Shown piece after piece: positions 11,631 through 59,839 of a stretch of 64,000 nt of DNA. The stretch spans positions 62,775 through 126,774 of the forward strand of contig CAWVRN010000009.1 in NCBI GenBank assembly GCA_963932905.1. The letters are read 5' to 3'. The position numbers and the translations under genes were made by a program. Origin of the DNA: an uncultured Bdellovibrio sp. (lineage in GTDB: Bacteria > Bdellovibrionota > Bdellovibrionia > Bdellovibrionales > Bdellovibrionaceae). Every line of letters starts with the position of its first letter. Positions within the stretch are counted from its first letter, which is position 1. Below the pieces are notes generated by a model. The model saw nothing but the letters and a program-made list of their open reading frames with translations, was not told the origin of the DNA and searched no databases.

Positions 11631-11674
11631 CGAATACGTCCTAGTTAGAGTCTGTAGCTAATTTTCTAAAGTGC

Positions 11675-12130
11675 TTAAATCGGTGAAAGACCAACGTCTT
11701 TGATGCCGTTCTGTTTTAGTAAATCCATTAAACGAATAACTTGATCATACTTAGTCGTCTTAGTTGGCAGAACATGGGCGTTCTCGATTTTTTGAGAGGT
11801 AGTAGCAAGAAGATAACTTTTTGCTTTCATCCAATCGATTTGCCCATCTTTTGCCGCTAGCGTATTTGATTTATCCGCCGCTTTTGGTTTTTTGATTGTC
11901 ACCGTGATATTGTTTTTCTCGTCGATAGAGACCCAAAGGCTAGCGCGTGGGTCTGTTTCATCCAGGCTTTGTCCACCGATCGCTTGTTTGGTTTCTAGTG
12001 ATCGGACTTCAACCCAAACCACTGTCATCAACAAGAAACAAATACAGACAGAAAGAATATCGAAAACGGGAAGCAAATTAAGCTCAACGTTTAAATCTTT
12101 TTTTCCACCTGATCCAGAAGCTAATCCCAT
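11675..12130 (-). CDS. ExbD/TolR family protein (AglQ-like)
   Basis: ELNLLPVFDILSVCICFLL TM helix with the conserved Asp; YDQVIRLMD. Confidence 0.9.
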   Translation of the reverse strand: MGLASGSGGKKDLNVELNLLPVFDILSVCICFLLMTVVWVEVRSLETKQAIGGQSLDETDPRASLWVSIDEKNNITVTIKKPKAADKSNTLAAKDGQIDWMKAKSYLLATTSQKIENAHVLPTKTTKYDQVIRLMDLLKQNGIKDVGLSPI

Positions 12131-12171
12131 AACAACCTCACGTTCCTAAATATGATCTGTTTTAACTCGTA

Positions 12172-12852
12172 CTACTCTTGGCTTGCTTTTGATTTCTTTT
12201 GAACCGGCTCGTAACTGTAAGTTAACCAGTTGTAGACCATCAATGCTGTTTGATTTACGTCTTCAGAAACTGAGTTAGCGCGATTTTGAAGAACTGCGAA
12301 CATCGCAAGGGCCGGGATCGCAACTAATAAACCGTACGCTGTTGCGTACATTGCCATCGAGATACCTTGTGATAACAACGCTGCTTTTTCCGCTGGGTTA
12401 ACGTTAGCTACCGCAGCGAAAGAGTCGATAAGACCGATGATTGTACCTAATAGACCAGCTAATGTGCCGATGTTACCGATAGCGGCTAAGAAACCAGTGC
12501 GTTTTTCAACGGCTGAGGCTTCAGCTAATAATACTTCATCCATTTTAGATTGGATTTCTTCACTACCACCGCGAGCTTGCGCGGCTTGTGTTCCAGCTAC
12601 GATAACTTTACCGATGGCTGAATCTTTTTGTGAAAGCTTTTGCGCTTTCGCTAGTACTGTTTCAAGACGACCTTTTTTAATGTCTTCTTCAAACGTCTTT
12701 GCCACCTTTTTGTTGTCTAAAGAGCGCGACACATAAAGTGCGTAAACTCTTTCGATGATGATCGCTAGAGAGAAAATCTGTCCAACGAAAATGATCCACA
12801 TAACAAAGCCACCATGGCCGAATGCGTGAATGATATTTGTAAAAAATGCCAT
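12172..12852 (-). CDS. MotA/TolQ/ExbB proton channel (AglR-like)
   Basis: TLAGLLGTIIGLI...GISMAMYATAYGLLVAIP. Start moved to the ATG at 12852, after gaggtag. Confidence 0.92.
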   Translation of the reverse strand: MAFFTNIIHAFGHGGFVMWIIFVGQIFSLAIIIERVYALYVSRSLDNKKVAKTFEEDIKKGRLETVLAKAQKLSQKDSAIGKVIVAGTQAAQARGGSEEIQSKMDEVLLAEASAVEKRTGFLAAIGNIGTLAGLLGTIIGLIDSFAAVANVNPAEKAALLSQGISMAMYATAYGLLVAIPALAMFAVLQNRANSVSEDVNQTALMVYNWLTYSYEPVQKKSKASQE

Positions 12853-12908
12853 AACTACCTCTTTTTTCATGTTTTTACAGGTTAGCACCTGGTTCGGGAG
12901 AGGTAGTG

Positions 12909-12925
12909 AGCAACGACTAGGCCGA
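12909..12925 (-). promoter_or_regulatory. Putative sigma54 -24/-12 promoter of the Agl-Glt operon
   Basis: The minus strand reads tcGGcctagtcgttGCt (GG-N10-GC with TTGC), about 57 bp upstream of the start. Confidence 0.55.
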
Positions 12926-13057
12926 AACCTCTACTGCAATCTAAACAGGGTAGAGGTCAAATTTTCTTAAATGAAAAGATTTTGGACACTCGATAATGAC
13001 AATTGCGGTCCGCACCGAAACAAAAACGGGCCCTGTTATTTTCTGAACAGGGAGAAA

Positions 13058-25336: not shown

Positions 25337-26173
25337 ATGAAATTGAAATACTTTTTCTCACTCACACTATGGACAGTAATTAATTTTGGGTGCGCGACCA
25401 CTGTGGTATTGGAAGCGCCATCCATGATGTCATTATCTTTACCAAAAGAGCAAGTAATACCCAACGTTGAGTTTATAGACCAAGAAAAAGATTTCTGTGG
25501 GCCAGCGACCGTGACGATGGCGCTTCGTTGGAATGGGATCGACGCCGACATCAATCACGTGGCCCAGAATGTATTCACCCCCGAATTGTCCGGCTCGTTG
25601 CCAGTTGATATTCTGAGCGCAAATCGCCGTTACGGAATGCTTGCCATGTCCGTGAATACTATGGATTCTTTGATGACAGAAATTGCAGCGAACAATCCTG
25701 TCATAGTCTTTCAAAATCTGACAGTCAGTTGGGCTCCGCAATGGCACTATGCTTTGGTAGTCGGTTACGATCTGACTCGGAAAAAAATAGTATTACATAC
25801 CGGACATCAGCCCTATATGGAGATGGATCTGTCAGATTTCGAGTACACTTGGAACCTGGCTGATAATTGGGGGCTAGTTGTTTTGTCTCCCGATAAACTA
25901 TCAAGTTCCGCATCGGAAATGGATCACGTAAAAGCGGCTGTTATCCTAGAGCAACTAAAGAAATCGGAGGATGCGAGTGTCAGCTATCAACGTATTTTAG
26001 AAAAGTGGCCTAACAACTTGGTCGCACTGATTGGTGCTGCAAATAATGCTTATCAAAATGGCAATCGTAAGCTGGCTATTCGGATTTTAAAACATGCTGT
26101 GAAGGTTCATCCAGAATCTGTCGCGGCCAAAAATAATCTGACAATCGCGATCGCCGAAAAAATAAAAAAATAA
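25337..26173 (+). CDS. PA2778 family C39-like cysteine peptidase with C-terminal TPR (lipoprotein)
   Basis: Q-x4-CGPA, NPVIVFQNL..W.PQWHYALVVGYD, TPR tail. Confidence 0.9.
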   Translation: MKLKYFFSLTLWTVINFGCATTVVLEAPSMMSLSLPKEQVIPNVEFIDQEKDFCGPATVTMALRWNGIDADINHVAQNVFTPELSGSLPVDILSANRRYGMLAMSVNTMDSLMTEIAANNPVIVFQNLTVSWAPQWHYALVVGYDLTRKKIVLHTGHQPYMEMDLSDFEYTWNLADNWGLVVLSPDKLSSSASEMDHVKAAVILEQLKKSEDASVSYQRILEKWPNNLVALIGAANNAYQNGNRKLAIRILKHAVKVHPESVAAKNNLTIAIAEKIKK

Positions 26174-39632: not shown

Positions 39633-42600
39633 GTGGTCTCTCTTCAAAAGAGTCTGGTCCATTTTTTGGATAGTAGTCCTAGCGTGAACCCATGGTACCT
39701 TTCCTCTTGTTTGAATTTGAAATTTGTCGCTGTCTTGGACAGATGTCTACCGTTATTGAGATGTCTCGTTTTGATGCTGTCATTGGTCTTTTTGCCGAAC
39801 TATAGTTCTGCTTCAAATGAGAAAACCGATGTCTCCAAAGAGCAGATTTTTAAAGCACTTAGAGAGGAGTACGGTCCTGACCTTGAAGAGTCTCGCTTGC
39901 CCACAATTAAAAAGGTAATTGGTGATGGATTTAGACGAATTTCAATTGCCCATGCCGGTCGCTTTCGTGATGTTGCTATTCACACGGAGCTACACATAGT
40001 CGACTCTGACGAGATTAACGCAATTGTCGGATCTACGCGGGAACACTCAAAGTCTCGAATAAAAAATATAGCTGTATTGACCACTGGTATTTTGCGGTTC
40101 TTTTTTAAAGACATTGAAGGCCAAGAGGATTTTCAAGTGAGAGTAAATGAGTTGATTGGAATTTTAGCCCATGAGCTGGGCCACACCGTAGATCAGTTGG
40201 ATAGAAATGGAATTGAAAATCACTACACTTCAAAAGCAAACCAAGCGGTAGAGATCAGAGCTGACGCTGAGGCTACTGAAATTCTCCAAGCGGCTAAATT
40301 AGACCCAAACTATTTAGTTTCAGCGTTAAGGCGACTACTTTCTCTTCCTCTAACTGGGTTCGATCCACTTTTTGCGGGGACTAGCACCCATCCGGAAACC
40401 TTTGTTCGCATCAGTAGTTTGGAACTGAAATTGAGTTTGGATAAAATTACGAAAGGTTCAAGACCGATCGAACAAATTGTTTTTACCCCCGAGACAGTTG
40501 CAACGGCAATGCAAGAGGTAAATCGAGAACTGACTCTCCGTTCAGGTATAGAGTTGCCTAATAATTTGGAATCACTGAGGCGGTTATTGAGTGAGAAAAA
40601 AGAGTTATCGGCTGTTGAGTTAAATGCCTGGTTGATTTGGTTTGACCGTTATATTGAAAAATATCCTGATATTGATACTAAAGGTACATATGATTTGGTA
40701 GAAATAGTTAAACTATTTTCGGTTCAAACGAAATTTGTTTGCGATAGTTCGCAATGTTTAAAAAAACTTTTTGAAAACATAAATGTTCTTCGTGGATTTG
40801 AAACTGTACCCCATAAAGAATATGTTCAAAAGTTACCATTCTTTAAAACCGATCTTTATTCTGTGAATGAGTACGGGCGATCATTGGCTACATTTGGGAA
40901 ATTTATTCATCCGGAACTAGTGAAAAGCTATTTAGAAAAAGATAACTCAGTGGCAATTGAATTTTGGAAAAGTTTTTCTAAATCTCCCTCTGACATGCTA
41001 TCGCAACAATCCCTAACAGAGTATTTCGGATGGGTGCAGCTGTTTTTTGATAGCTATTTTGAAAATTTGCGTAAACCAATAGCTATTGGAAATACGTCAA
41101 GGTTTGATTTCTTTGGTCTTCTGCCTAGCGACAGTAACAAAAGCATCTGGTCACTGGCTTTGTTGTTGAAAAATAAAAATCCAGAATTGGGCCGAATCGC
41201 ACGGTCGGCTATGCAAGAAATTTGGAATAATCGTGGATTCTGGGCCTTTATAGAATTAAATTCGGAAGTGAATAACAGATTTGATTGGATGTTTATTGCC
41301 AAAGAACTTGGTATTGACAAGAGCGTGGTTGGTAGTTCCGTTCAAAAGTCATTGATCGAGTTTTTAGATCAGCATTTTGAAAGCTTGCCCGATTTCGAAC
41401 AATCTCAGTTTTTTGGGCAGAGATATTCAGTTAAATCCCTTTTTTCAGTTAACAAGAGAAAGCCATTTTGGATTACTGAGTCACTTAGTCAAAAGTTTGA
41501 ACGCGTTTTAGAAAAAATAAGAGATCAAAAAGTAAAAGCGAAATATTCAGAATTACTTTTCTCTTCTTTGTCAGTCTACTATCCAAATATTTCCAATAAG
41601 CGTTATGAAACTAAGTTGACTAAAGAACTTAATCGCAGTGACTTAGCCGAGCTGTCTACAATTCAAAAAATTAAAACGCGTGCCGTTGAGATTTGGAATT
41701 TGTCGACAGGAATTATAGATAAAGAACTCCGGGTTTACAATCCTATTTGGATTGCACATACCGCAAGGGTGATAGCCAACTCAAAAATAGACTCCGTATT
41801 GAAAGCCGATTTTATTAGATATTTAGCCTTTGGAGTGGATGACTTGCCAAAGGAATTACCCACAGTTCCATTTGCAAAGCTTCCGGACCAGTTTCTGCCT
41901 GAGTTTTATCAACTGCTTCGGGAGTACGGGATTATCACTGACATTTTTGATCTTATGGCTAAGATTGCTCAGTTGGAAAAGAAGAGCTTTATTAAATTTA
42001 AAAATTTTGAATCTGAAAGCTCGTTTGATCCAGTTGAAGAAGACCGAAAGAATTTGTTAGTCAAGTTAGGTCCGATTTTTTATGAGGAATTGAAGGAACG
42101 GGTTTCAAAAGAAACTAGTTTACGCGATTTTAAAAAAATTGTTTTTGAAGTCAGTCGTTGGTTTTCTTATTTTGGGAAAAAAAATGAATTCGGAATTTCG
42201 CCAAAAATTAGTGGTCTTTTAGTCGAAAAGTTAAAGGAATTTACACTGTCTCCTTCTGAATCGCTGGCTCTGTTTTATCGAATCACAAGAATTGGCACCA
42301 ACGAAACGACAGATAGATATTTTAAAGACAACATACTTCCTCAATTGGAAAATAGTGGGAGGGTTAAAATTATTCAAAGTGTCTTGGCTAAGGATTTAAT
42401 AAATTCTGAATCATTAAAAACGGATCTGGCGGCGGTAGTCGTGAAAAATAATTTGTCTTTGGGAATGGATTTGTTTGACGTTTCTAGCTTGATCAATAAG
42501 TTGCTTCCTAAAGATTCTTTATATCGAGACGCGTATTTAGAATCAATTGGTTGGGACCATGACTTAACCGGTCCCTTTTTAAAAGGACATGTTGAGGATG

Positions 42601-44435
42601 AAAAGTCATCCAATTGGAGACGTATGACTCCTTACTCGGTAAATGTTGCATCGACCGTAAGTTCATACGTTCAAACTTTAAATTCTACATTAAGGCTAGA
42701 GTTTTTGGATTTTGTAGTTAGAGCTGAAAAGGGAAGTTTGCTTCCTAACTCTATTTATGATTATTTAAAAAGAGATCTTATAGAGAAGCTATCTCCAGAC
42801 GAGAAAGTAAACGAATTCTATATTAAAAAAATCGATAGGACACTATATGGGTTTAAAGTCCAGATAGAGAAATTTTTAGGCGAAACCAACCCCGCCCAGC
42901 GAGTTCCTATTATTCTGGCCGTTGCCACCCATGGATCTAACTCTCTGTATGGGTCGACTTCATTGATGGAGTATTTAATTCAAAAGTACCTTGGAGTCGC
43001 CCCAAATTCGGAAAAGTTTTTTTATATTAAAACATATTTAGAATTATTAGATCCTAGTGAAAAAAATGTAGTTTTCTCTTATTTATTGGCAAATTCTGGT
43101 GGGTCTGTGGAAACGGTGGGAAAAAATAGTTCTATCGCAAGTCTTCTTAAACTGTTTGGACCTATCGGAATTAAATTTGGGCAATTGGCTGCTGTATGGA
43201 ATATTTTTGGTGCTGAACACCAGGATGCTCTAGAGGAGCTTTATCATAAAGCCCCAGCGATGAGTAAGTATGATGTTGAAAACGAATTAAACAAATCGAT
43301 AACGAAAAGTTTTTTTGAACAAAACATTAAACTTAAGAAAGTGCTTGGTAGTGCCAGTATTAAAACCGTCGTTTTAAGCCAATATAAAGATGGGCCAGAT
43401 ATAGCAATTATGTTGAAACGTCCCTATGCGTCCGGTCAGATTGATGCAAGTCTTGATCTGGCGAAAAAATTTCTAGCTCGTCTCAAGGCCCAGGGGGTAG
43501 AGTTTCAGAGCCCATTGTTTGGGCCAATGGTTGCCGCCATTGAGGCCGAAATAGCTCAGGAAACAAATTTTAAAATAGAGGTCGAAAACTATAAAATCGC
43601 CGACCGAGTTGTTAACGCGATCCAAATGAATAAAAAAACTGAAAGGCAGACAGGTTGGAAGTTCTCAGTTCCTAAAGTTATAGAAGATTTTCCAGTTAAT
43701 GAGTCGCTTTTTGCGGTGGAAGCGGTAGCCGGCGTTTCGTTAAAAGACTATTTGAAAGATGCTACAGTATCCGAATTTGATAAAAAACAAGTGGTTGAGC
43801 TTGTTACTGAAATGTCTTTGGATATGTTATTTGAATACGGTTATTTTGATCCAGATCGACATCCGGGAAATTGGATAATTGATAAAGATAGTAAAAAAAT
43901 CTATTTTATTGATGCGGGTAAGTTAACCAACTTTTCAGCAAAGAAATCAAAGTGGAAATGGGACCCTAGATTAACGTTAGCCTCCTTTTTAAAAGCACTT
44001 CATTCTAGAAGTATTAATGAGTTGGTTCACTACGCATCGTTAATGACTGAATCGGGAACAGTTTCTCCTGAATCAAAAGAAAAGGCGAAGAATCTCATTA
44101 AAAAATTATCTGATGAAACCTTGGAGATAAACCCAGATTTTTTAAAAACCGTCGTTGAAATATTTTATAAATCCGGATTCGATATCGACCATCTTTACAC
44201 TTTTGGAGCTCTGAAGGGCCTTATGGTGTTAAATGGTAAAGTTGACGGCAAACCGGTAGTGGAACCCAAGACATTCGCTAGACTGATCGAAAAATCGGTA
44301 CGTCGCTTGCTAATCGGTAAACTACCAGCCATCGGAATAGAAAAAGCCTCGACTGGGCTTAGGCAGCTCATTGGCAATCAAAATTCGAAACGAAGAAACA
44401 GTTCAAATACTTGCCTGGGTTTTTATTCTAAATAG
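39633..44435 (+). CDS. Large fusion protein: N-terminal M48-like zinc peptidase plus C-terminal AarF/ABC1/UbiB atypical kinase (true start probably about 39756-39774)
   Basis: Peptidase part: EINA...GILAHELGH...EIRAD...STHP. Kinase part: GPIGIKFGQ, LGSASIKTV, E.NFKIE, DPDRHPGN and IDAG. Confidence 0.85.
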   Translation: MVSLQKSLVHFLDSSPSVNPWYLSSCLNLKFVAVLDRCLPLLRCLVLMLSLVFLPNYSSASNEKTDVSKEQIFKALREEYGPDLEESRLPTIKKVIGDGFRRISIAHAGRFRDVAIHTELHIVDSDEINAIVGSTREHSKSRIKNIAVLTTGILRFFFKDIEGQEDFQVRVNELIGILAHELGHTVDQLDRNGIENHYTSKANQAVEIRADAEATEILQAAKLDPNYLVSALRRLLSLPLTGFDPLFAGTSTHPETFVRISSLELKLSLDKITKGSRPIEQIVFTPETVATAMQEVNRELTLRSGIELPNNLESLRRLLSEKKELSAVELNAWLIWFDRYIEKYPDIDTKGTYDLVEIVKLFSVQTKFVCDSSQCLKKLFENINVLRGFETVPHKEYVQKLPFFKTDLYSVNEYGRSLATFGKFIHPELVKSYLEKDNSVAIEFWKSFSKSPSDMLSQQSLTEYFGWVQLFFDSYFENLRKPIAIGNTSRFDFFGLLPSDSNKSIWSLALLLKNKNPELGRIARSAMQEIWNNRGFWAFIELNSEVNNRFDWMFIAKELGIDKSVVGSSVQKSLIEFLDQHFESLPDFEQSQFFGQRYSVKSLFSVNKRKPFWITESLSQKFERVLEKIRDQKVKAKYSELLFSSLSVYYPNISNKRYETKLTKELNRSDLAELSTIQKIKTRAVEIWNLSTGIIDKELRVYNPIWIAHTARVIANSKIDSVLKADFIRYLAFGVDDLPKELPTVPFAKLPDQFLPEFYQLLREYGIITDIFDLMAKIAQLEKKSFIKFKNFESESSFDPVEEDRKNLLVKLGPIFYEELKERVSKETSLRDFKKIVFEVSRWFSYFGKKNEFGISPKISGLLVEKLKEFTLSPSESLALFYRITRIGTNETTDRYFKDNILPQLENSGRVKIIQSVLAKDLINSESLKTDLAAVVVKNNLSLGMDLFDVSSLINKLLPKDSLYRDAYLESIGWDHDLTGPFLKGHVEDEKSSNWRRMTPYSVNVASTVSSYVQTLNSTLRLEFLDFVVRAEKGSLLPNSIYDYLKRDLIEKLSPDEKVNEFYIKKIDRTLYGFKVQIEKFLGETNPAQRVPIILAVATHGSNSLYGSTSLMEYLIQKYLGVAPNSEKFFYIKTYLELLDPSEKNVVFSYLLANSGGSVETVGKNSSIASLLKLFGPIGIKFGQLAAVWNIFGAEHQDALEELYHKAPAMSKYDVENELNKSITKSFFEQNIKLKKVLGSASIKTVVLSQYKDGPDIAIMLKRPYASGQIDASLDLAKKFLARLKAQGVEFQSPLFGPMVAAIEAEIAQETNFKIEVENYKIADRVVNAIQMNKKTERQTGWKFSVPKVIEDFPVNESLFAVEAVAGVSLKDYLKDATVSEFDKKQVVELVTEMSLDMLFEYGYFDPDRHPGNWIIDKDSKKIYFIDAGKLTNFSAKKSKWKWDPRLTLASFLKALHSRSINELVHYASLMTESGTVSPESKEKAKNLIKKLSDETLEINPDFLKTVVEIFYKSGFDIDHLYTFGALKGLMVLNGKVDGKPVVEPKTFARLIEKSVRRLLIGKLPAIGIEKASTGLRQLIGNQNSKRRNSSNTCLGFYSK

Positions 44436-48137: not shown

Positions 48138-48470
48138 TCACTGCGTAGATAGCCGGTCAACAGTAGTAAACACTTTTTTAAAACGCCATGGAATGCGCCA
48201 TTGCCAGCGTGAACCAGCTTCAAATAAGCGCATTGTTCCTGGAGTCATTTCAAAACACTCTTTAGTTTCGATATTTTCAACCTCGGCACGTCCTTCTAAA
48301 ACATAGACGGTTTCAGTCCATTCAAATTCTAGATCCAGCAATCCGGGCCCACATTCCCAAATGCCTATTTGAATATCATTACTAGCTGTTTGAGCTCCAA
48401 TACCTAGTAGTTGAGGAGGTTCGTTGCGACCGCCAAAGTTAAACGGTTTCATAGTTAGGTCTGTCGTCAT
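48138..48470 (-). CDS. Small cupin (DUF861/EutQ-like)
   Basis: GIWECGPG...ETVYVLEG...W...FKKVF. The ATGA overlap with the methyltransferase sets the start at 48470. Confidence 0.85.
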   Translation of the reverse strand: MTTDLTMKPFNFGGRNEPPQLLGIGAQTASNDIQIGIWECGPGLLDLEFEWTETVYVLEGRAEVENIETKECFEMTPGTMRLFEAGSRWQWRIPWRFKKVFTTVDRLSTQ

Positions 48471-49252
48471 GGTTTTTCTCCACTGACGACGTACCAAAAG
48501 TGACTAAAACTTGCCTCGGGCATTTGCGATAGCTGGCGGAGATCGGCAATAGCTTGCGCGCCTTGAGGTCGATCGGATGGATCTAAATAGATATTTAGGC
48601 TTGGCATTAACGTTTCAACCAGAAATTCAATATCAGGTCCTCCGCCAATAATGGGCTGCACTTCTGTTTGAATATTTTTAAATCGAAGCTGTTTTAAATA
48701 CGGTGTTAATTTGCGGCCCACGTTGGGATCGCCTCCTAATTTTCGCTGGCCCTCTTGAACTTTGGCCCAAAAGTCCTTGAACGAGGGTGGGGCGGGTTCA
48801 AAAAACATGCAGTCGCGATCGGCGTCTTCGATTAAAACTCGTCCACCTGGTTTTAGTACACGCAAAATATTTTGCAGCGCTCTTATCGGATCGCTCAGGT
48901 GCATGAACACCAATCGAGCGTAAACAAAATCAAATTGATTGTCCTGAAACGGAAGATCGTAAACATCGGCTTGTCTGAAGGTTAAATTCCTTTGCAGGCT
49001 AGACACATCCAGCAAGTCATGACTGCGATCTATGGCAACCACTTGGGAATTTGGATAGAGTTCAGACATAATACGCGCGCGAATCCCCTGAGCCGTGCCG
49101 ACCTCAAGTGTATGACCTTCCATCGGGTAGCCATGCCGTCGTAGTAGATCGGGAAATCCATCAAGGCGCATTTGAGCCCGTTGTGCTAACATCTTGGCTT
49201 CGTGGTGACGGCCTTCTAATTTTTCAAACTGGTAAGAACCAAATGGTTTCAT
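48467..49252 (-). CDS. Class I SAM-dependent methyltransferase
   Basis: LEVGTAQG, ADVYDLPFQDNQFDFVYARLVFMHL and RVLKPGG. Confidence 0.92.
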   Translation of the reverse strand: MKPFGSYQFEKLEGRHHEAKMLAQRAQMRLDGFPDLLRRHGYPMEGHTLEVGTAQGIRARIMSELYPNSQVVAIDRSHDLLDVSSLQRNLTFRQADVYDLPFQDNQFDFVYARLVFMHLSDPIRALQNILRVLKPGGRVLIEDADRDCMFFEPAPPSFKDFWAKVQEGQRKLGGDPNVGRKLTPYLKQLRFKNIQTEVQPIIGGGPDIEFLVETLMPSLNIYLDPSDRPQGAQAIADLRQLSQMPEASFSHFWYVVSGEKP

Positions 49253-49878
49253 AAATTCCTCACATAACGTAACTCAGGAAACGATCCTTCAAATTTGTAA
49301 GTAAGGTTACGTCCTAGTTTTCGTTCGCAATAGTCTAGAGCCTGTTGTCCATGTGTTGTCATATCTAATACGGCAACGATCACTGGTCGGTGCGATCGAT
49401 AGCTAGATTGTTGCCATCCCAATGGGTTTTCAAAAAAATGATAGCCCATTTGCTTCAGTGTGTTTTGTCGTGGCGATCCACTAACAAATGTTCCAACAAC
49501 CAAAGGGATACAGTGGTGCAGGGCCATTTTTAAAAACCAATAACGCAAAATAAGATTCAGTCCTTGGGACTGGTGTGACTGGATCGTGGCCGCGCGACTC
49601 AGCAGAATCGCGGGCCATTGTAGAGTCTTTGGGAAATCCCAAGGACATTCTAACTTTTTTTCTAGTAATGATTGATCCGCAATCAATTCACCGCGCATCG
49701 TAGAGACCATTTTCTGATTGTCTCGGGCCACCATCACGTAACTTTGACTGTCAGAAATACTCCATCGCAAAGTGCTGAGGTCCAACGTGTAACCATTGGC
49801 CTGCGCGTACTCTTGTTTGCGCAAGTTTTCTATTTCTAAAGTCGCATCATCCTCGGCAAAATAAATCGATTGAGTCAT
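49249..49878 (-). CDS. GNAT-fold acyltransferase (LuxI/FeeM-like)
   Basis: LRKQEY...D.QSYVMVA...VSTMRG...LSRAAT..HQSQGL...MGY. ATGA overlaps at both ends give start 49878. Confidence 0.6.
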   Translation of the reverse strand: MTQSIYFAEDDATLEIENLRKQEYAQANGYTLDLSTLRWSISDSQSYVMVARDNQKMVSTMRGELIADQSLLEKKLECPWDFPKTLQWPAILLSRAATIQSHQSQGLNLILRYWFLKMALHHCIPLVVGTFVSGSPRQNTLKQMGYHFFENPLGWQQSSYRSHRPVIVAVLDMTTHGQQALDYCERKLGRNLTYKFEGSFPELRYVRNL

Positions 49879-51233
49879 AGAACACCATCTAACAAAGTTA
49901 GGCGATGGTCTTCTGGTCCTGTCGTTTTCATATTTTCCAACATTGGCAATGTAACGATGCGGTCTGACAGTCGACCCAAGCACGACAGATTGGCAAAACC
50001 AGGCCCTTGCATTAACCCGGCTAGCATCGGCAAATGCAATGTCGGTGTCAGTCCTCCCACCGATAGATCGGCTTGAATTGACGCCGCAATTTTTGATTGA
50101 GTCAACGGTTCACCTAATACATGTTCTAATCTATTCAAAGCTTCGACCGACAGAAATTTCCTAAGAGTCGACATTTGGTCAAAACCGCTGGCTAAAATCA
50201 CCTGATCGTAATCGCGCCTTGAAACAGTTCCCGCATAGTTGATATCTAATGATAGACGACCTTCATTTTCCGAAATGTTTTCGACTCGACCGGCAATAAT
50301 CTGATGACGAAGTTGTTCATTCAAAATAGTCATAGCATGAGTTGAAAATACTCCCAAATCCGTGCGTTCGATAAAATCAATACGGTCTTTAAGTTCTAGA
50401 TTCTGCCATTGATTGCGCTCGGGCTGACTGTAGACTTGATTTTCGTAGTAGCTTTCGGCGCGAGTAGAAATAAATCCCTTTGGGGAAATGATATCTACAC
50501 GCACGTTTGGTGCATACTGAGAAAGGGCAAGCAGTGCCGACGCTGCATTTTCTCCCGCACCGATAATGGCGATGCGGCCTTGAGCAGCGAACTTTTTACT
50601 TTTCATTGCGGACCAGAATGATTCCAGATCATATGTGTTCTTTGGAATTTTGCCGTCTTTCAAAAAATCTGTACGCGTGTGCCCTGGACCGGTCAGCATT
50701 AAACGATCGGCTTCCAAACTGTAAAGATACGGTTCACCATCCGTATTTTTTAAGTTTAGCTCCCAGCGAGATCGTTTCGAATTTAATCCGATGGCTGTCA
50801 CTTCCGCAGAAACTATGGAAACGTGAGGCTCTAGTTGAGCCGAAACCCAGCGTAAATAATCTGTCCAAAATAAATGGCACGGAGCCGGACGACCGCGATC
50901 TACCCAGTCAGAAAAACGACCGGTTTGAACCAGGAACGACATCCACGTGAATTGCAGTAAGCGTTGTTTAATTCTTTGATTTAAATGTTTGTCGGCGATG
51001 TCAGTTTCTATGGGGAATACGACGTCTTTTTCCGGCGATGTACCTAACTTCATCTCGCCATTAGTGTAACCGAACTCACCAGACCAGTTAGCTGCCACGT
51101 TATGTCGTTCAATTATGATTACGCGATCTACGGGTAAACTAAATTCCTCAAGAACTTTAGCTTTCACCGCCGTGGCGATACCTTTTGGACCAGCACCAAT
51201 GACAACTAGTGTTTTTCTAGGTGATTTAAGCAT
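49875..51233 (-). CDS. Lysine N6-hydroxylase (flavin N-hydroxylating monooxygenase, MbtG/NbtG-like)
   Basis: VIGAGPKG, AANW...LGTSPEKDVVFP, NADPH motif IIGAGENAAS and QGPGFANLSCLGRLSDRI, all close to mycobacterial MbtG. Confidence 0.9.
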   Translation of the reverse strand: MLKSPRKTLVVIGAGPKGIATAVKAKVLEEFSLPVDRVIIIERHNVAANWSGEFGYTNGEMKLGTSPEKDVVFPIETDIADKHLNQRIKQRLLQFTWMSFLVQTGRFSDWVDRGRPAPCHLFWTDYLRWVSAQLEPHVSIVSAEVTAIGLNSKRSRWELNLKNTDGEPYLYSLEADRLMLTGPGHTRTDFLKDGKIPKNTYDLESFWSAMKSKKFAAQGRIAIIGAGENAASALLALSQYAPNVRVDIISPKGFISTRAESYYENQVYSQPERNQWQNLELKDRIDFIERTDLGVFSTHAMTILNEQLRHQIIAGRVENISENEGRLSLDINYAGTVSRRDYDQVILASGFDQMSTLRKFLSVEALNRLEHVLGEPLTQSKIAASIQADLSVGGLTPTLHLPMLAGLMQGPGFANLSCLGRLSDRIVTLPMLENMKTTGPEDHRLTLLDGVL

Positions 51234-52248
51234 GTAACAAACTCCGTTCATTGTGGCCTGATTCTAAAGCGCGACCAATACGCTGACTGATTTCTAGAGA
51301 AAACTTAAAAGCGGTTCCGCCCCAACCCGTAGCTAACATCATTTTTGGTTGACCCATTAAGTAGCCCGCAAATCCTAAACGGTTAGGTGAATAGCAGTCG
51401 TTGGCCGTCACCTCGACCGGTTGACCGGTCCAAAGTTTTTCTTTCAAACGTTTTGAATTGAGATCTGCTAGAATCAAATGATCACCTGGCCCCAAGCGGG
51501 CAAAATCTAACGTTTCGCGATCGAAGTAACTTGGCAGTATCATCTGTTGATCTTTTTTCTGAACATGATACGTCGTTAGTTTTTGTGAACGTAACGAATG
51601 ACCGATGCCTAAATCATGAAGGTGAGGCAGTAAACGTGCCCCACCAGCTAAGATGACTGTTTTGGCAGTGATGCTGGATTTCTGCGAGAAAATTTTGTAC
51701 TGACCGCGGAAATGGCAAATGCGATCGACTTCAAAATCATCCACGATGGTCATTCCTGATTTTTCACTGAACGAAAGCAAATCATCGGCGAAACGAATTG
51801 GTGACAGATGCGATCCCAGTGGCTCGTACACAGCCCATTGGTCGTCGGCCCAATGGAATGCAGGAAATTTCAAGCGTCCCGCTGCTGGGGTTAGAATTTC
51901 AAATGCATAACCAGCTGAGTCCATTTTTTGAAAATTGGCCGAGTATTGAGGAAATCGGCGTGAATTAAAGAAATACAAATGTCCATTCGGTTGCTGTTTT
52001 TCAGTGATAATATGCCGATCTTGGTATTTTTTTAGTAACGCGAAATTATTTAAAGCCAGTTCAACATGTTCCAAGTTTTCATGAAACACGCGCAACATGC
52101 CACCCGAACTGGCTGTCGCGCTGACTGTTTTTCGGCCGCTATCAATAATAACGTTATTTCTGATACCTCGACGAGTCAGTTCATAAGCTATGCTACTACC
52201 GATGCAACCAGCGCCGATGATGGCGTGGTCAAACTCAAGAATTTTCAT
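51226..52248 (-). CDS. FAD-dependent oxidoreductase (DAO/glycine oxidase family)
   Basis: IIGAGCIGSSIAYEL, ATASSGGMLR and ATGWGGTAFKFS. Confidence 0.88.
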   Translation of the reverse strand: MKILEFDHAIIGAGCIGSSIAYELTRRGIRNNVIIDSGRKTVSATASSGGMLRVFHENLEHVELALNNFALLKKYQDRHIITEKQQPNGHLYFFNSRRFPQYSANFQKMDSAGYAFEILTPAAGRLKFPAFHWADDQWAVYEPLGSHLSPIRFADDLLSFSEKSGMTIVDDFEVDRICHFRGQYKIFSQKSSITAKTVILAGGARLLPHLHDLGIGHSLRSQKLTTYHVQKKDQQMILPSYFDRETLDFARLGPGDHLILADLNSKRLKEKLWTGQPVEVTANDCYSPNRLGFAGYLMGQPKMMLATGWGGTAFKFSLEISQRIGRALESGHNERSLLHA

Positions 52249-54023
52249 AGTGCCTCCTCTTGGGAATCTGCATAGACATCCAGAGATAAAATGGATAAAA
52301 TTTTATTGGCGGTTCTCGGCATAAATGATTGCAATGCGGTTCCTAATGTATGGATACGGATTTTATCGTTAGATAAATGTCCCATGCCTTGGACCGTCGA
52401 ATCTATAAAATTTAAAATCAAGCGACTCGCTGGTCGCGGATCAAAATTTTCTGGCGTCATCAGCATTTCGAAGTCTTTTAGAAACCGTTGGCTTTGGATG
52501 ATGACGTTAGGTGCGGCTTCGGCGTTAACGTCAGACGGATTCAAATTCGATAGTCCTTTTGATTTCACAATTGCCACAGCTTGATCGAAAATTTGATTCA
52601 GCGAAATTTGTAAATCTTTCGAAAACGAATTAAATTTTTCTAGCTCAAAATTGGACGTATGCAGCGACGGACGAATCTGGCTTAGATAGAGCCTTAAATG
52701 TTCACTATCACCCGTAAACTCGTCGGCCCAAATCGCATGCTCACGGCTGGTTGAAAATTTAGCGCCGTCAAGTAATAGGAATTCATTTGTGATCACCGCG
52801 TTTGGCAGTTTTACATTTTGATTCATTGCTTTTAATAAAGCGGGTATAAACATCAAATAGTAAAAACTATTGTCAAAGCCAAAGCTATGAACCCAAAATT
52901 TATTTCCTAATGCAAATTGTTCGTAATGAGCCGCCATTTCAAACCATACGTGGATATTGCGGCCATCGACCTGAATACCTAAATCATTTTTAGTCGGGTA
53001 GGCGACAAGGATTTTGCTTTCTGGTTGCGTTTGCACTTCTTGCACTAGCTGTCGTAATCGCGGAGATAAATTCAATCTCTTCAATTCGTTTTTGATTAAC
53101 GGTAAATGGGCTTTAAGATCAAACGTGTACACCGATTTCGTTTTTGAGTGAGCGGCCTGGCCGCAGCGTCCGCAATGGATGTTATTCAATCGATACGCTG
53201 GCACAACAATGCCGCAGGATTCGCAGCCACCACGACTGCTCGATCCGCACTGTGGGCACATGCCATCCGCATGAACATCCACTAAAGTTAAATCGCAGTG
53301 AGTGCAATGGGGGATGGCTATTGTTTCTAATTTGATAACTCCGTCTGCGACCGCAGTATTGAAAAACGTTTTGATTTTATTTTGGTAGTCTATGTTTTGG
53401 CTGGGTTCGATGAATTCGTCAAAATGAATATCCATATTAACAAACCCGCGTTGAATACGCGCGCGTCGGTGTGATCGGAAATCACCGGTTTCTAGTTGAA
53501 GTGAGCGCGCTTTTTCCCCGACATAATTTTGATGATCATCCGTGCCTGTGTGAGTGACCACGTCGACATTTTTCGACTGTAAATAGCGCGAAAGAATATC
53601 GGCGGCCAAGTACGGTCCGCTGATATGTCCCAGATGAAGCGGTCCGTTGGGCGTGGGTGGAGCCACGGTGATTAGAACATCAGAGGGAAGCTTTGGAATG
53701 TCGAAGTCTTCAGTATATATAGATAGAAACTGAAGGGACAAATCTCCAGTATTTTTCAAGATGTGCAGACTAAAAGGTGGAATTTGAATCAGGTCCCCGG
53801 CGTGAACCGGTGCGGAATTTTCACCAATAGTCATCTGACCCTGACCTTGGATAATGAAAAAAATTTCAGGTTCAAAGTGTTTGTGAGCGGCGGTTTTTTC
53901 GCCGGGCTCGATAATACAAAATGTAGTATTTAAAGCGTCATTAAATCCGATTTTAGATAAGGAATGGCATAAGATGCCGTAGGCGTTTTTATACTGAGCT
54001 TGATTGATGGATGTGATGTTCAT
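52245..54023 (-). CDS. Cupin / methionyl-tRNA-synthetase-like fusion (hydrazine synthetase, Spb40/PyrN/Tri28 family)
   Basis: N-terminal cupin HKHFEPE...H; then PPTPNGPLHLGHISGPYLAAD, four CxxC knuckles, FGFDNSF and KFSTSR. RBS aaggag sets the start at 54023. Confidence 0.9.
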   Translation of the reverse strand: MNITSINQAQYKNAYGILCHSLSKIGFNDALNTTFCIIEPGEKTAAHKHFEPEIFFIIQGQGQMTIGENSAPVHAGDLIQIPPFSLHILKNTGDLSLQFLSIYTEDFDIPKLPSDVLITVAPPTPNGPLHLGHISGPYLAADILSRYLQSKNVDVVTHTGTDDHQNYVGEKARSLQLETGDFRSHRRARIQRGFVNMDIHFDEFIEPSQNIDYQNKIKTFFNTAVADGVIKLETIAIPHCTHCDLTLVDVHADGMCPQCGSSSRGGCESCGIVVPAYRLNNIHCGRCGQAAHSKTKSVYTFDLKAHLPLIKNELKRLNLSPRLRQLVQEVQTQPESKILVAYPTKNDLGIQVDGRNIHVWFEMAAHYEQFALGNKFWVHSFGFDNSFYYLMFIPALLKAMNQNVKLPNAVITNEFLLLDGAKFSTSREHAIWADEFTGDSEHLRLYLSQIRPSLHTSNFELEKFNSFSKDLQISLNQIFDQAVAIVKSKGLSNLNPSDVNAEAAPNVIIQSQRFLKDFEMLMTPENFDPRPASRLILNFIDSTVQGMGHLSNDKIRIHTLGTALQSFMPRTANKILSILSLDVYADSQEEAL

Positions 54024-54071
54024 AGGAACTCTCCTTAACTTGAAGGGCAACCTACTCTAAAATTTAGATGA

Positions 54072-54117
54072 ATAAAAATGATCTATTTTCATAAATTCCG
54101 TTGAAAATTATAGAATG
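54072..54117. promoter_or_regulatory. LysR-type T-N11-A boxes in the divergent promoter
   Basis: aTaaaaatgatctAt (54072-54086) and cgtTgaaaattatagAatg (54099-54117). Confidence 0.55.
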
Positions 54118-54148
54118 ATTGGTACAACATCGGTCATCGGAGGGTTCT

Positions 54149-55042
54149 ATGAAATTTGACCAGCTTCAATATTTCGTCGAAACGGCACGGCGCCAACATA
54201 TCGGGCAGGCCGCACGTTTTTTAAATATTTCTCCGAGTGCCATTAGTCACAGCATCGCCGCGTTAGAAGAAGAGTTCGGCCGTATACTGTTTGAAAAACA
54301 GGGTCGTCAAATTAAGCTCACTCAGCATGGTAAGTTACTATTAGATCGCGCTGAATTTCTATTATCTGAAGCCGGCCGCATTCGCGAAGAAATCTCATCA
54401 GAACAATCATCGATGCGTGGCCATTATCGATTAGCGGCGACTCACACATTGTGTTCGGAATTTTTAGTTCCTGTGTGGATGGGTATTCAAGCCGAACACC
54501 CGGCCTTAACGTCTACATTGCATTCGTTGCGATCGGGCGAAGTTCTGGCTCGGGTGGGTGCGGGTGAAGTGGATTTGGGTATTTGTTTTTCCCCGCAAAC
54601 GGGCCCCAATCATGAACAGGAAGTTTTGCATCAAGGCAAGTTGGTAATCTGTTTCGGAAAAAAACATCCGTTCCTAAAAGACCGTCGGGTCGAAGACCTA
54701 GATCGCTATCCCAGCGTTGCGGCCTTGGCAGCGCAAGGGATTGAAAATTGCGAAAATCATCCCGCGTTTCAACGGCTACGTATTCAACCGAAAATTATTA
54801 ATATGTTCGATAGTTACGACGTGGCGATCGAGTCGTTAAAACATAGTCAGGCGTGGACATTGTTGCCAGACTTTATCGCCTATGCTCATCGAAATGAAAT
54901 CGAAACGTATATCCCGCGCGCTTGGGATGCCGATTACAAAATCGTGGCGGTATGGCCTAAATACCGTATCCGCACGCAAGCGTTGGATTACGTAATCGAA
55001 GGCGTGGCGAAGAAAGTTCGCGCGCTAGCCGAACGCGTCTAG
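54149..55042 (+). CDS. LysR family transcriptional regulator
   Basis: MKFDQLQYFVETA...AARFLNISPSAISHSIAALEEEFG..LF; RBS ggagg. Confidence 0.95.
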   Translation: MKFDQLQYFVETARRQHIGQAARFLNISPSAISHSIAALEEEFGRILFEKQGRQIKLTQHGKLLLDRAEFLLSEAGRIREEISSEQSSMRGHYRLAATHTLCSEFLVPVWMGIQAEHPALTSTLHSLRSGEVLARVGAGEVDLGICFSPQTGPNHEQEVLHQGKLVICFGKKHPFLKDRRVEDLDRYPSVAALAAQGIENCENHPAFQRLRIQPKIINMFDSYDVAIESLKHSQAWTLLPDFIAYAHRNEIETYIPRAWDADYKIVAVWPKYRIRTQALDYVIEGVAKKVRALAERV

Positions 55043-55080
55043 TGCGGGGGCCAGCATCTTAGCTTGAATTTGCAAATCTT

Positions 55081-55101
55081 TCGTTGAGTTTTTCAGAACG
55101 A
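55081..55101. promoter_or_regulatory. LysR-type box upstream of the DMT transporter
   Basis: tcgtT-gagtttttcag-Aacga is an inverted repeat with T-N11-A spacing and resembles 54099-54117. Confidence 0.55.
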
Positions 55102-55157
55102 TTTCCGTTAAAATTCATCAGTTTTAATTAAACGGCATTTAGAATAAAAGTCCCTCT

Positions 55158-56021
55158 ATGAGTTTTCGATTCGGCCTGTGGGCGATCCTTTTAGTTATAA
55201 GTTTGTCGGTGACGGGGTTATCGATTCGCTTGCTTGCAGATCGGCATGTGCCACTGTCGCAGAGTTTATTGGCGCGTGGATTAGTCTGTTTAATCCTGGT
55301 TTGGGGTTGGGCTAAACGCCAGCAACTATCTTTGATCCCAAAATCTATTAAGACCCAAGTTTTTCGCGCATTGATCGCAGGACTGGCACTGACATTTTTT
55401 TCCATGAGTTACAACTGGTTGTCGGCCTCTACAGTCGCAGTGCTTTCTAATATTGATGTTCCCATGCTCGTGATCTTGGGGTCATTTGTCGGGCAGAATT
55501 CTACGTTGCGGGCAAAGCTGCTGTCTTTGATTTCGATCGTCATCCTTGCCATATATACCTTAAGTCTGCAGCGGCAGCCGCAGTGGCTATTGGGGATTTC
55601 TGTTTTAGGGATCGGTACCGTGCTGTTGTGCTTTGGTTATTTCTTTATCAAGAAAAGTATGACTGAAGAAAACGAAGTTATCACTGTCCTAACTCCTTCG
55701 CTTGCGATAATCGCCTATGGTCTGGTGCAATGGGGTTTGGAACCCATGACCACATCGGTGTGGAATTCTCTGTCTGTCATCAGCGTGATAATTTCTGGTA
55801 TTGGTATGTTTGGCGCCTACTACGCTACTATGCGGTTATATGAATTAACCGATATCACGACGGCAGAATTTCCGACGTTGCTATCATCGGTTGCCATTCA
55901 ACCAATGGAAGCGATTTTTTTTCGTGAATCCCTGAGTGTATCTCACCTGTGGTTATCTATCGTTTTTGTTTTTGTAACGTATTTAATTTTGCGAACAGAA
56001 AACAAAGAGGCCGTTGTATGA
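55158..56021 (+). CDS. DMT/EamA family exporter
   Basis: 287 aa with about 10 TM helices in two repeats. Confidence 0.8.
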   Translation: MSFRFGLWAILLVISLSVTGLSIRLLADRHVPLSQSLLARGLVCLILVWGWAKRQQLSLIPKSIKTQVFRALIAGLALTFFSMSYNWLSASTVAVLSNIDVPMLVILGSFVGQNSTLRAKLLSLISIVILAIYTLSLQRQPQWLLGISVLGIGTVLLCFGYFFIKKSMTEENEVITVLTPSLAIIAYGLVQWGLEPMTTSVWNSLSVISVIISGIGMFGAYYATMRLYELTDITTAEFPTLLSSVAIQPMEAIFFRESLSVSHLWLSIVFVFVTYLILRTENKEAVV

Positions 56022-56470
56022 AGACTGTCGAAATGAATTTGCCGCGAATAAAACAAACTCTGGATTTTTCGTGCGGAGCCGCCTGTTTTGAAAGTATGTA
56101 TCAGTTCTTAAAGCGAGGCGAACATGCTGACGATTTGTTTTTTGCTCGCGAACTCGGAACTCTGGAACTGGGCTATACGTCACCGGAAAGGATCGCTGAA
56201 CTTGCGCAGCGCTATCGATTTAAGGTGAATTTTCAGAAAAATCTAACATTGTCAAAACTTCAAATCGCGTTTGATGGTACGGCCGTGCTATTTGTCACTT
56301 GGTGGTATGAAGATTCAGGTCATTACAGTTTAGTTAAGTCGATGGATGATAGCTATATCACATTGATGGACCCCTGGGAGGCTCGCGAGGATAAGGACAA
56401 TCGGATTTTGTTAGCTGATTTTGAAAAATTCTGGACTCAGCGAGGCGCAGTCTTGATTTCAGTGGCTTAA
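56018..56470 (+). CDS. Stand-alone C39-like cysteine peptidase
   Basis: QTLDFSCGAAC, GHYSLV and LMDP; ATGA overlap with the DMT gene. Confidence 0.8.
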   Translation: MKTVEMNLPRIKQTLDFSCGAACFESMYQFLKRGEHADDLFFARELGTLELGYTSPERIAELAQRYRFKVNFQKNLTLSKLQIAFDGTAVLFVTWWYEDSGHYSLVKSMDDSYITLMDPWEAREDKDNRILLADFEKFWTQRGAVLISVA

Positions 56471-58234: not shown

Positions 58235-59839
58235 ATGAATACCGTTCATCCGGAAGAAAGCATTTCGCCATGGTCGGCAACTGTCGAGATGCCTGAGTTT
58301 TCACCGTTGCGAAACGACATCACAGTTGATGTTTGTGTTGTCGGAGGTGGCATTGGTGGTTTAACAACAGCCTACTTGTTAATGAAGGAAGGCAAAACGG
58401 TGTGCGTACTGGAGAGCTTCGAGCTAGGTAGCGGGCAAACTGCCCGTACGACAGCACAGTTTTCAAATGTATTAGGTCATCGTTATTATGAACTTGAAAA
58501 ATTGCATGGTTTGGATGGCGCAAAGCTAGTGGCGCGCAGCCATACGGCCGCAATTGAAAAAGTAGCGCAAATAATTCATGAAGAAAATATCGACTGTGAA
58601 TTTGAACGAATTTCCGGATATTTGTTCCAAAGTGAAAAAGATAGGCAAGACGATAGTCAAACCGATACTTTAGAAAGGGAATTTGAAGCCTGTCAGCAGG
58701 TAGGATTAAATGCAGTCGTAAAATTAGAAAGTATGCCAATTAAAGGATTTAACCGTTCTAGTCTGCGCTTTCCGAAGCAAGCACAGCTGCATCCGTTAAA
58801 ATATTTAAAACGTTTGGCAGAAATTTTAAATGATGGTGGTGTGCAAATATACACGCATTCATTTGCGGAAAAATTTCAAGGTGGCAAAGATAGTTTTGTT
58901 AGAACTCGTGATGGACACACCGTGAAATGTCAATCGATTGTGGTGGCTACAAATACTCCCATTAATGACATGTTTGCACTTCATACAAAACAATATGCCT
59001 ATCGTAGCTATGTGCTTGCATTTAGAATTCCTGAAGATGTAGTGGAAAGCGCACTTTATTGGGACACCGAAGATCCCTATCATTATGTTCGTTGCGAGTC
59101 AGGTCATACCCTTATAGTGGGTGGTGAAGACCATAAGACAGGGCAAGAGCTACATCCTGAACGTTGCTATGAACGTCTGGAAACTTGGGCACGGAAACAT
59201 TTCTCGTTTCTAGGCGAAGTTTTATATCGTTGGTCAGGACAGGTAATGGAGCCGATGGATGGTCTTGGGTTTTTAGGACGTAATCCTGGCGATTATGATA
59301 ATGTCTACGTGATCACGGGGGATGCTGGCAATGGTATGACTCATGGGACGATCGGTGCAATGTTGGTTTCGGATCAAATCATGAACAGAAAAAATCAATG
59401 GGAATCCTTGTATAGTCCATCGCGCATTTCGTTGCGAGCCACCTCCACTTTCTTAAAAGAAAATTTAAATACCGCCGCTCAGTATGCGGATTGGGTCACA
59501 ACAAAGTCGGTAAATACATTGGACGACTTATCTTATGGCGAAGGGAAAGTCTTTCGCGATGGATTTCAATTGGTTGCAGCCTATCGAAATGAAAATGGAG
59601 CCTGCCACACAGTGTCTGCTGTATGTCCTCACCTGGGTGGTGTTGTGTCTTGGAATTCGGCGGAAAAGTCTTGGGATTGTCCTTGTCATGGGTCCAGATT
59701 TGATGGCCATGGTAAAGTCATCGAAGGTCCTGCCATCACGGATTTGAAACCCATCGATTATGTCCAGCCAGCAATGACGGCAGAACGAGTTGTGCCAACA
59801 TTGCCGACTTATGGGACAGATGACTTATCACCAGTTTAG
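58235..59839 (+). CDS. FAD-dependent oxidoreductase with C-terminal Rieske domain (YhfW-like)
   Basis: [26 protein letters not shown] and [10 protein letters not shown]. Confidence 0.93.

Follow-up and report, generated by a model that had tools for sequence, protein, structure and literature searches.

The stretch of DNA analysed here, hereafter the window, comprises 64,000 nucleotides from an uncultured Bdellovibrio sp. (assembly GCA_963932905.1, contig CAWVRN010000009.1, positions 62,775 to 126,774). Between positions 48138 and 56470 it contains a compact cluster of nine genes, six on the minus strand and three on the plus strand, among them the gene for a putative hydrazine synthetase (HS), in which a Zn-cupin is fused to a domain resembling methionyl-tRNA synthetase (MetRS). 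Each of the nine was checked in a listing of the open reading frames (ORFs) and by Pfam scans of the window, and all lie at the coordinates assigned to them by an earlier, sequence-only reading of this DNA. The fusion gene (52245-54023, minus strand) matches both Cupin_2 (E 3e-14) and tRNA-synt_1g (E 2e-47). Its ORF reaches a TTG at 54050 (601 amino acids, aa), and the likely start is the ATG at 54023, which has an AAGGAG site upstream and is the same start that the earlier reading had chosen.

The other five minus-strand genes follow in close succession: a DAO-family amine oxidase that uses flavin adenine dinucleotide (FAD; 51226-52248; Pfam DAO, E 2.7e-25), an NbtG-like flavin L-lysine N6-monooxygenase (49875-51251; Lys_Orn_oxgnase, PF13434, E 8e-14), a 209-aa acyltransferase with a predicted GNAT fold of the long, FeeM/LuxI-like type (49249-49878), a class I methyltransferase dependent on S-adenosylmethionine (SAM; 48467-49252; Methyltransf_11, E 3.8e-22) and a small Cupin_3 (EutQ-like) protein (48138-48470; Cupin_3, E 2.2e-11). 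On the plus strand lie a LysR-type regulator that is divergent from this biosynthetic operon (54149-55042; HTH_1 and LysR_substrate), a putative exporter that is a drug/metabolite transporter (DMT) or EamA-like permease with ten transmembrane segments (55158-56021; EamA, 27.6 bits, just under the cut-off of 28.2), and a stand-alone, cytoplasmic, C39-like cysteine hydrolase of papain fold and 150 aa (56018-56470; Peptidase_C39, E 1e-9). The ORFs of the GNAT protein (49249-49983), the small cupin (48138-48497) and the LysR regulator (54119-55042) extend further, with refined starts at ATG codons at 49878, 48470 and 54149, respectively; that of the C39-like protein (55949-56470, 173 aa) has its likely start at ATG 56018, and an identical 150-aa gene call exists (P0243).

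Stop and start codons overlap as ATGA at the HS/oxidase, monooxygenase/GNAT, GNAT/methyltransferase, methyltransferase/small cupin (48467-48470) and permease/C39 junctions, and the oxidase and monooxygenase genes overlap by 8-26 nucleotides. The overlapping six-gene operon of the sequence-only reading is thus present, as are the divergent regulator, the putative exporter and the C39-like gene beside it, and every family that it had assigned was upheld, including the GNAT fold of an ORF that has no Pfam match.

The cupin/MetRS-like fusion and its predicted substrates

Cupin_2 covers residues 45-112 of the 601-aa fusion and tRNA-synt_1g residues 125-474. The top solved-structure matches in a search of the PDB are 9VQ4 and 9L8V (E 5e-41), which represent PyrN-C, the part of the pyrazomycin hydrazine synthetase that resembles MetRS (bioRxiv 10.1101/2025.08.22.671884); archaeal MetRS (1rqg, E 5e-35) and Escherichia coli MetRS (about 1e-13) match more weakly. 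The motifs reported for PyrN in the same preprint are HLGH and KFSTG. The window protein has HLGH, followed by KFSTS at the place where PyrN has KFSTG and MetRS has KMSKS, and in an alignment of 48 rows the combination of HLGH or HVGH with KFSTS occurs in 43 of 43 HS-like rows, while all five rows of housekeeping MetRS have K/R/Q-M/F-SKS. Four CxxC motifs match the two Cys4 zinc knuckles of PyrN-C, and the D/N pair that binds the amino-acid backbone in the PyrN structures (9L8V, 9VQ4, 9VQJ, 9VR2) is likewise shared. In the N-terminal cupin, residues H56, H58, E62 and H96 (601-aa numbering) have an H-x-H-x3-E...H spacing identical to that of PyrN, whose metal-binding and catalytic residues are H50, H52, E56 and H90, with the glutamate being essential (PMC8664883).

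The same protein could be taken for a second, drug-resistant or specialised MetRS surrounded by unrelated neighbours. The NCBIfam MetRS models do match it at E 2e-70, and public annotations name its homologues "methionyl-tRNA synthetase" or "class I tRNA ligase family protein"; however, all of these scores fall well short of the curated cut-offs (238 bits where 553 are required), KFSTS stands in place of KMSKS, and the residues of the MetRS pocket differ from those of the fusion at five of the eight positions considered below. The genome has a separate, canonical housekeeping MetRS on another contig (E 1.5e-151), and five related genomes that carry the HS paralogue likewise keep a MetRS of their own. 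In a quick IQ-TREE run on the MetRS-like domain (LG+G4, SH-like approximate likelihood-ratio test supports only, 48 rows) the 43 HS-like rows split from the five housekeeping MetRS with a support of 100, and the 15 proteins from the conserved loci described below unite with a support of 96. Together with the conservation and translational coupling of the surrounding gene set, these differences make a second MetRS scarcely credible. Sequence and motif comparisons therefore identify the fusion as a predicted hydrazine synthetase and not a MetRS, as the sequence-only reading had held.

A locus of Kitasatospora aureofaciens (L029) was tried as a reference for Tri28 of the triacsin pathway and was rejected: it is not the tri operon, because the genes next to the HS encode a luciferase-like monooxygenase, a BBE/FAD_binding_4 protein and a transporter of the MMPL type, because its HS ORF encodes 566-597 aa as against a reported 74.7 kDa for Tri28, and because this is the sole HS-like gene in that genome. 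The family as a whole is estimated to have more than 1,200 members (PMC13149037), and representatives from Proteobacteria have already been reported (review PMC11705231; PMC13149037).

The two substrates of such an enzyme can be predicted with different degrees of confidence. The flavin N-hydroxylase gene located two genes downstream of the HS gene encodes a protein whose best PDB match, over its full length (residues 13-434 to 2-413), is the L-lysine monooxygenase NbtG (4d7e, E 1.3e-85), whereas ornithine hydroxylases match at E 1e-10 or worse; the earlier assignment as a lysine N6-hydroxylase is well borne out by this comparison. For the amino-acid partner, we aligned through PyrN-C the eight pocket positions of Matsuda et al., as quoted in PMC12376268. 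In the literature, Spb40 and AzsN, which use glycine, have the code TPDQWMNH, PyrN (glutamate) has SFVQALNR and ThzN (threonine) has SADQWYGH. The window protein, like all 14 other proteins of the conserved module, has APDQWMNY, which matches the glycine code at six of eight residues. PyrN differs from it in its code and in the pocket arginines with which it binds glutamate: Arg390 and Arg425 align with His375 and Tyr398 here. The code suggests that the partner is glycine, to which we give somewhat better than even odds; another small amino acid is possible but clearly less probable. Neither APDQWMNY nor the actinobacterial code PPDQWMNY was found in any paper of the literature searched.

Conservation and regulation of the module

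With the fusion protein as the query, 25 loci were fetched (L009-L033). The module is present in 15 of them (L009-L023), mostly metagenome-assembled genomes of Bdellovibrionota labelled Bdellovibrio, Bdellovibrionaceae, Pseudobdellovibrionaceae or Bacteriovoracaceae, and, because the same set recurs in 15 of the 25, the gene set is more than a chance association. The LysR gene is found in all 15 module loci. The oxidase (beside the HS gene), the monooxygenase and the GNAT gene are each found in 14, with L017 cut by a contig end; the permease in 14, with L016 cut; the methyltransferase in 13, with L017 cut; and the C39-like gene in 11, with L016 and L020 cut. The small cupin, which occurs in seven of the 15, is an accessory part. 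The arrangement can vary: in L021 the seven genes other than the regulator share a single strand, on which the permease gene falls between those of the GNAT protein and the methyltransferase and the C39-like gene comes last, and the hydroxylase and the GNAT protein are fused in one ORF of 638 aa (12819-14735). The permease and the C39-like protein form a single stop-free ORF in L010 (2972-4324, 451 aa) and in L011 (1371-2690, 440 aa). These hydroxylase-GNAT and permease-C39 fusions tie the parts of the module together.

In the window, the cluster is flanked by genes for an SNF2 helicase and for a protein of the endonuclease/exonuclease/phosphatase family. Synteny of the flanking genes is restricted to the four closest loci, and the cluster boundaries drawn by the sequence-only reading are therefore right. 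Just upstream of the flanking helicase, at 39633-44435, the window encodes a 1600-aa protein that combines an ABC1 atypical kinase domain with a weak match to the M48 peptidases.

The remaining ten loci (L024-L033) are actinobacterial and have only the HS in common with the module. In the three that were scanned (L025, L029, L032) an HS with the code PPDQWMNY is accompanied by a DAO protein and an FAD_binding_4/BBE oxidase; a luciferase-like monooxygenase occurs in L025 and L029 and a typical PF13434 hydroxylase in L025 and L032, and the GNAT protein of the cassette is absent from L025 and L032. Across the phylum, HS matches at E <=1e-60 occur in 19 of 401 sampled genomes (the present one included) and in 12 of 203 genera. 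All three other genomes of the same genus have a match, as do four of 53 in the family, with none in its two best-sampled genera (0 of 26 and 0 of 14). The 13 weakest of the 19 matches are at 34-37% identity and may belong to other cluster types. Four contigs with the module (L015, L016, L018, L019) are labelled Gammaproteobacteria, Proteobacteria, Deltaproteobacteria and Polynucleobacter and nest among the Bdellovibrionota copies in the tree; either horizontal transfer or errors of binning or labelling could account for these labels.

The regulator is more conserved than the HS in 15 of 15 loci (e.g., 96% versus 72% in L009). In the divergent HS/LysR promoter region of the window lies an operator-like block, TTTTCAAC-N7-TGAAAAT.GATCATTTTTATTCAT (54068-54107, minus strand). 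A block of fixed spacing, TTTTCAAC-N7-TGAAAA..ATCA.TTTTATTCAT, is visible in all 16 intergenic regions compared (the window and 15 loci), and TTTTCAAC is exact in 14 of these 16. A second copy of the operator-like motif stands upstream of the permease gene (55109-55128, plus strand). The pattern TRAAAWNNATCANTTTTWWT, which is post hoc in that it was derived from these very sites, has two matches in the 64-kb window (54071-54090 and 55109-55128) against 0.11 expected. With up to two mismatches allowed, 11 of 15 loci have the promoter-proximal site, and of the 13 loci with a spacer between the LysR and EamA genes, 10 have the permease-upstream site. The LysR protein would bind this conserved motif at both promoters.

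The putative tailoring and export proteins

Among PDB entries, the DAO-family protein shows a weak likeness to dimethylglycine dehydrogenase and to sarcosine oxidase. A second flavoprotein of this family in the window (58235-59839, 534 aa), which carries a C-terminal Rieske [2Fe-2S] domain and adjoins an Hpt-domain protein, is not conserved with the module. For the methyltransferase the top PDB match is 3mgg (E 3e-22), followed weakly by the N-methyltransferases PEAMT, MitM and SDMT (E 1e-13 to 1e-7), and every NCBIfam match is below its cut-off; by these comparisons it is a generic class I SAM-dependent enzyme. The small Cupin_3 protein is without the canonical His ligands.

The ORF of the GNAT protein has no Pfam or NCBIfam match, and no informative PDB entry emerged from a sequence-profile search (best E 0.44). 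Its AlphaFold2 model has a GNAT fold (pLDDT, the model's confidence score, 91.5), and Foldseek matches it both to GNAT acetyltransferases and to CoA-dependent synthases of acyl-homoserine lactones. The family comprises 126 members within 5.8 billion clusters, all of them unnamed, and 49 of the 119 listed matches with a contig on record have a longest contig of the same length as that of listed HS matches, a proxy for co-location.

The resemblance to the lactone synthases suggests a different end product, in which the same core enzymes operate but the GNAT protein adds a fatty or otherwise long acyl group permanently, to give an N-acyl hydrazide that would serve as a signal resembling a lipo-amino acid, or as a surfactant, with LysR as its sensor and the C39-like protein responsible for turnover or immunity. 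Of the 209 residues, 192 align with BjaI, 182 with RpaI and 168 with FeeM, compared with about 140-155 for ordinary GNATs; Pfam FeeM (PF21926) matches seven of 13 members at a sub-threshold level (E 0.021-0.033); the neighbours of the protein in the Atlas are FeeM-type clusters; and both the LysR protein and its two operator-like sites are very conserved. The structural matches to the FeeM/LuxI type are, nonetheless, tied with those to ordinary GNATs, and we regard the permanent acyl-hydrazide as an unlikely outcome.

The hydroxylase-GNAT fusion of L021 invites yet another interpretation: the two enzymes could make N6-acyl-N6-hydroxylysine, to which the cupin/MetRS-like protein would then ligate an amino acid by a linkage other than N-N, the product being a small metal chelator. 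NbtG itself is an enzyme of a siderophore pathway, and ExbB/ExbD genes are found elsewhere in the window (11133-12888). But none of the four residues on which N-N formation depends is missing from the cupin, HS and DAO stay paired as they do in the known hydrazine cassettes, the module includes no IucA/IucC, NRPS (nonribosomal peptide synthetase) or TonB-receptor gene, and the GNAT protein has no match of the Acetyltransf_8 type even at E 10. A chelator is hence very improbable.

The C39-like protein has profile matches to the C39 domains of PCAT1 and ComA (E about 1e-4), and Q13, C19, H102 and D118 of its 150 residues are invariant in 11 of 11 sequences. Its AlphaFold2 model, which represents residues 1-151 of the 173-aa ORF and so includes 23 spurious N-terminal residues and misses the last 22, was matched by Foldseek to the peptidase domains of ComA and LahT with template modelling scores of about 0.6; these matches are weak (best E 3e-3) and consistently papain/C39-like. 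The protein has no N-terminal hydrophobic stretch. Its subfamily has 110 members, with a sharp drop in score after about 107. Like PCAT1, ComA and LahT, the module thus has a papain-fold C39 domain of the Gln/Cys/His/Asp type attached to, or coupled with, an exporter; it differs from these systems in that the partner is a DMT permease and not an ABC transporter, in that the module has no ABC transporter and no precursor peptide gene, and in that the proposed substrate is a small acyl-hydrazide. Neither a permease-peptidase fusion nor a pairing of a C39 protein with a DMT permease in a small-molecule pathway was found in the literature searched.

Two other regions of the window may be recorded here. 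A second C39-like protein (Peptidase_C39_2, 278 aa) is encoded at 25337-26173, adjoining a DUF6627 protein and an OPT oligopeptide transporter. Between 8101 and 19288 there is a long run of minus-strand ORFs, mostly without a Pfam match, that includes a 1007-aa TPR protein, an ExbB/ExbD/ExbD set, an 800-aa ORF with no match and a 1130-aa beta-propeller protein.

The proposed pathway and its precedents

In the triacsin pathway, Tri26-28 make hydrazinoacetate from lysine and glycine without a tRNA, and the GNAT enzyme Tri31 then succinylates its distal nitrogen before a ligase dependent on adenosine monophosphate (AMP) and an acyl carrier protein (ACP) take over, according to the triacsin preprint. 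The preprint gives m/z 220.1292 ([M+H]+) for the Lys-Gly adduct and m/z 257.0517 for hydrazinoacetate derivatised with DNFB. In the Dob diazo pathway (DobG, DobE, DobB, DobA) the GNAT enzyme DobB succinylates hydrazinoacetate likewise, and this group is taken off again at a later stage by the C45 peptidase DobA (PMC13061610). Both cases offer a precedent for the sequence-only reading's idea that the hydrazino acid is acylated and/or methylated and then exported. The module resembles the Spb38-43 (s56-p1) and Tri26-31 sets in having a lysine N6-hydroxylase, a cupin/MetRS-like HS whose pocket is of the glycine type, and candidate counterparts of their DAO-like FAD oxidase and of their GNAT-type acyltransferase of about 25 kDa; this supports the likeness of the core cassette to these two pathways that the sequence-only reading had pointed out. 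It differs from them in that an AMP-dependent ligase, an ACP and an acyl-ACP dehydrogenase are all missing, and in that the methyltransferase, the small Cupin_3 protein, the C39-like hydrolase, the DMT permease and the LysR regulator are added. Among the 50 window ORFs of at least 110 aa, none was found to have an AMP-binding (adenylation), PP-binding, condensation or ketosynthase domain, or a domain of the ligase, carrier or dehydrogenase of those sets or of an NRPS or polyketide synthase, in agreement with the carrier-free character first attributed to the cluster, and, because the genes overlap so tightly, the operon has no room for a small carrier gene.

The window thus offers candidates for the first four steps of such a pathway and a deprotecting hydrolase, with no ligase, carrier or dehydrogenase, and it is on this ground that acylation, methylation and C39 deprotection at the point of DMT export are proposed. 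We consider the cluster to be a LysR-controlled, carrier-free module for the biosynthesis and export of a small N-N metabolite, a reading to which we assign a probability of roughly 0.7. By homology, the NbtG-like flavoenzyme would hydroxylate L-lysine at N6; the MetRS-like domain would adenylate the amino acid, most likely glycine, and esterify it onto the N6-hydroxyl; and the Zn-cupin would rearrange the ester so that the two nitrogens become linked, yielding N6-(carboxymethylamino)lysine. Context then suggests that the DAO-family oxidase cleaves the lysine side of this Lys-amino acid hydrazine oxidatively and releases a hydrazino acid, hydrazinoacetic acid; that the FeeM/LuxI-like GNAT protein acylates its distal nitrogen, the acyl group serving for protection as with Tri31 and DobB; that the methyltransferase methylates the acyl-hydrazino acid at N or O; and that the C39-like hydrolase, at the cytoplasmic face of the DMT permease, removes the acyl group during export. 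The first three steps would thus rest on homology, and the later ones on context, on the two fusions and on published precedent. What the product is, which amino acid is the partner and what the compound does in nature are points of inference.

The Dob pathway provides a parallel to the later steps, since there too an acyl group protects hydrazinoacetate and a hydrolase of a peptidase family unmasks it. DobA, however, is a C45 peptidase that acts on a carrier-bound intermediate, whereas the hydrolase of the module is C39-like, carrier-free, and coupled or fused to a permease. A more elaborate version would have the module encode a peptidase-containing DMT exporter: methylated hydrazinoacetate, a reactive free hydrazine kept masked in the cell as an acyl-hydrazide, would be unmasked at export by a C39-type hydrolase borrowed from the bacteriocin exporters and would act as a warhead against prey or competitors, with the LysR circuit sensing the pathway. 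We put this version forward as a speculative and rather doubtful extension. The predatory lifestyle of the host is deduced only from its taxonomy.

Several observations weigh against the carrier-free pathway or its individual steps. PyrN-C is ahead of the archaeal MetRS by a modest margin, with 144 bits to 124. The sequence-only reading had looked to a phylogeny to separate the fusion from MetRS and to associate it with known hydrazine synthetases; the separation is seen, but the tree includes no biochemically characterised hydrazine synthetase, so that membership of this family rests on the motifs, the PDB match and the gene context. Two of the eight pocket positions depart from the glycine code, in a comparison that covered the codes of glycine, glutamate and threonine enzymes. 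The similarity of the DAO protein to a DAO adjacent to an actinobacterial HS is weak (E 9e-5 over 70 residues), and its putative role in cleavage is assigned from its position. The C39-like gene was not found in L014 or L015, nor the methyltransferase in L015, although the flanking DNA is present, and the hydroxylase-GNAT fusion would fit the acylation of N6-hydroxylysine too.

The core enzymes of the module are of a known kind, whereas the tailoring and export genes that surround them are uncharacterised. A further Gram-negative comparison is the por cluster of Pseudomonas orientalis (Por9/Por11), which likewise has a glycine-using HS and for which the review PMC11705231 gives the final product as unknown; it differs in that Por9 acts on ornithine. 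Neither this accessory set nor its concentration in Bdellovibrionota was found in the literature searched, which excluded Matsuda 2024 and several supplements, and a search combining "Bdellovibrio" with "hydrazine" returned nothing on this pathway, judged from titles and the beginnings of abstracts.

All of the hydrazinoacetate pathways known to us (s56-p1, triacsin, azaserine and Dob) hand their building block to carrier proteins, and the module would show to what use bacteria put it in the absence of a carrier. It also links the fold of the C39 "double-glycine" peptidases to a DMT permease in a small-molecule pathway, and its three core enzymes would add glycine-type biocatalysts from a mesophilic Gram-negative source. 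To our knowledge, Bdellovibrio-like bacteria have no reputation as makers of natural products; an N-N compound that they conserve, export and control through a dedicated regulator would therefore be a concrete lead into their chemical ecology.

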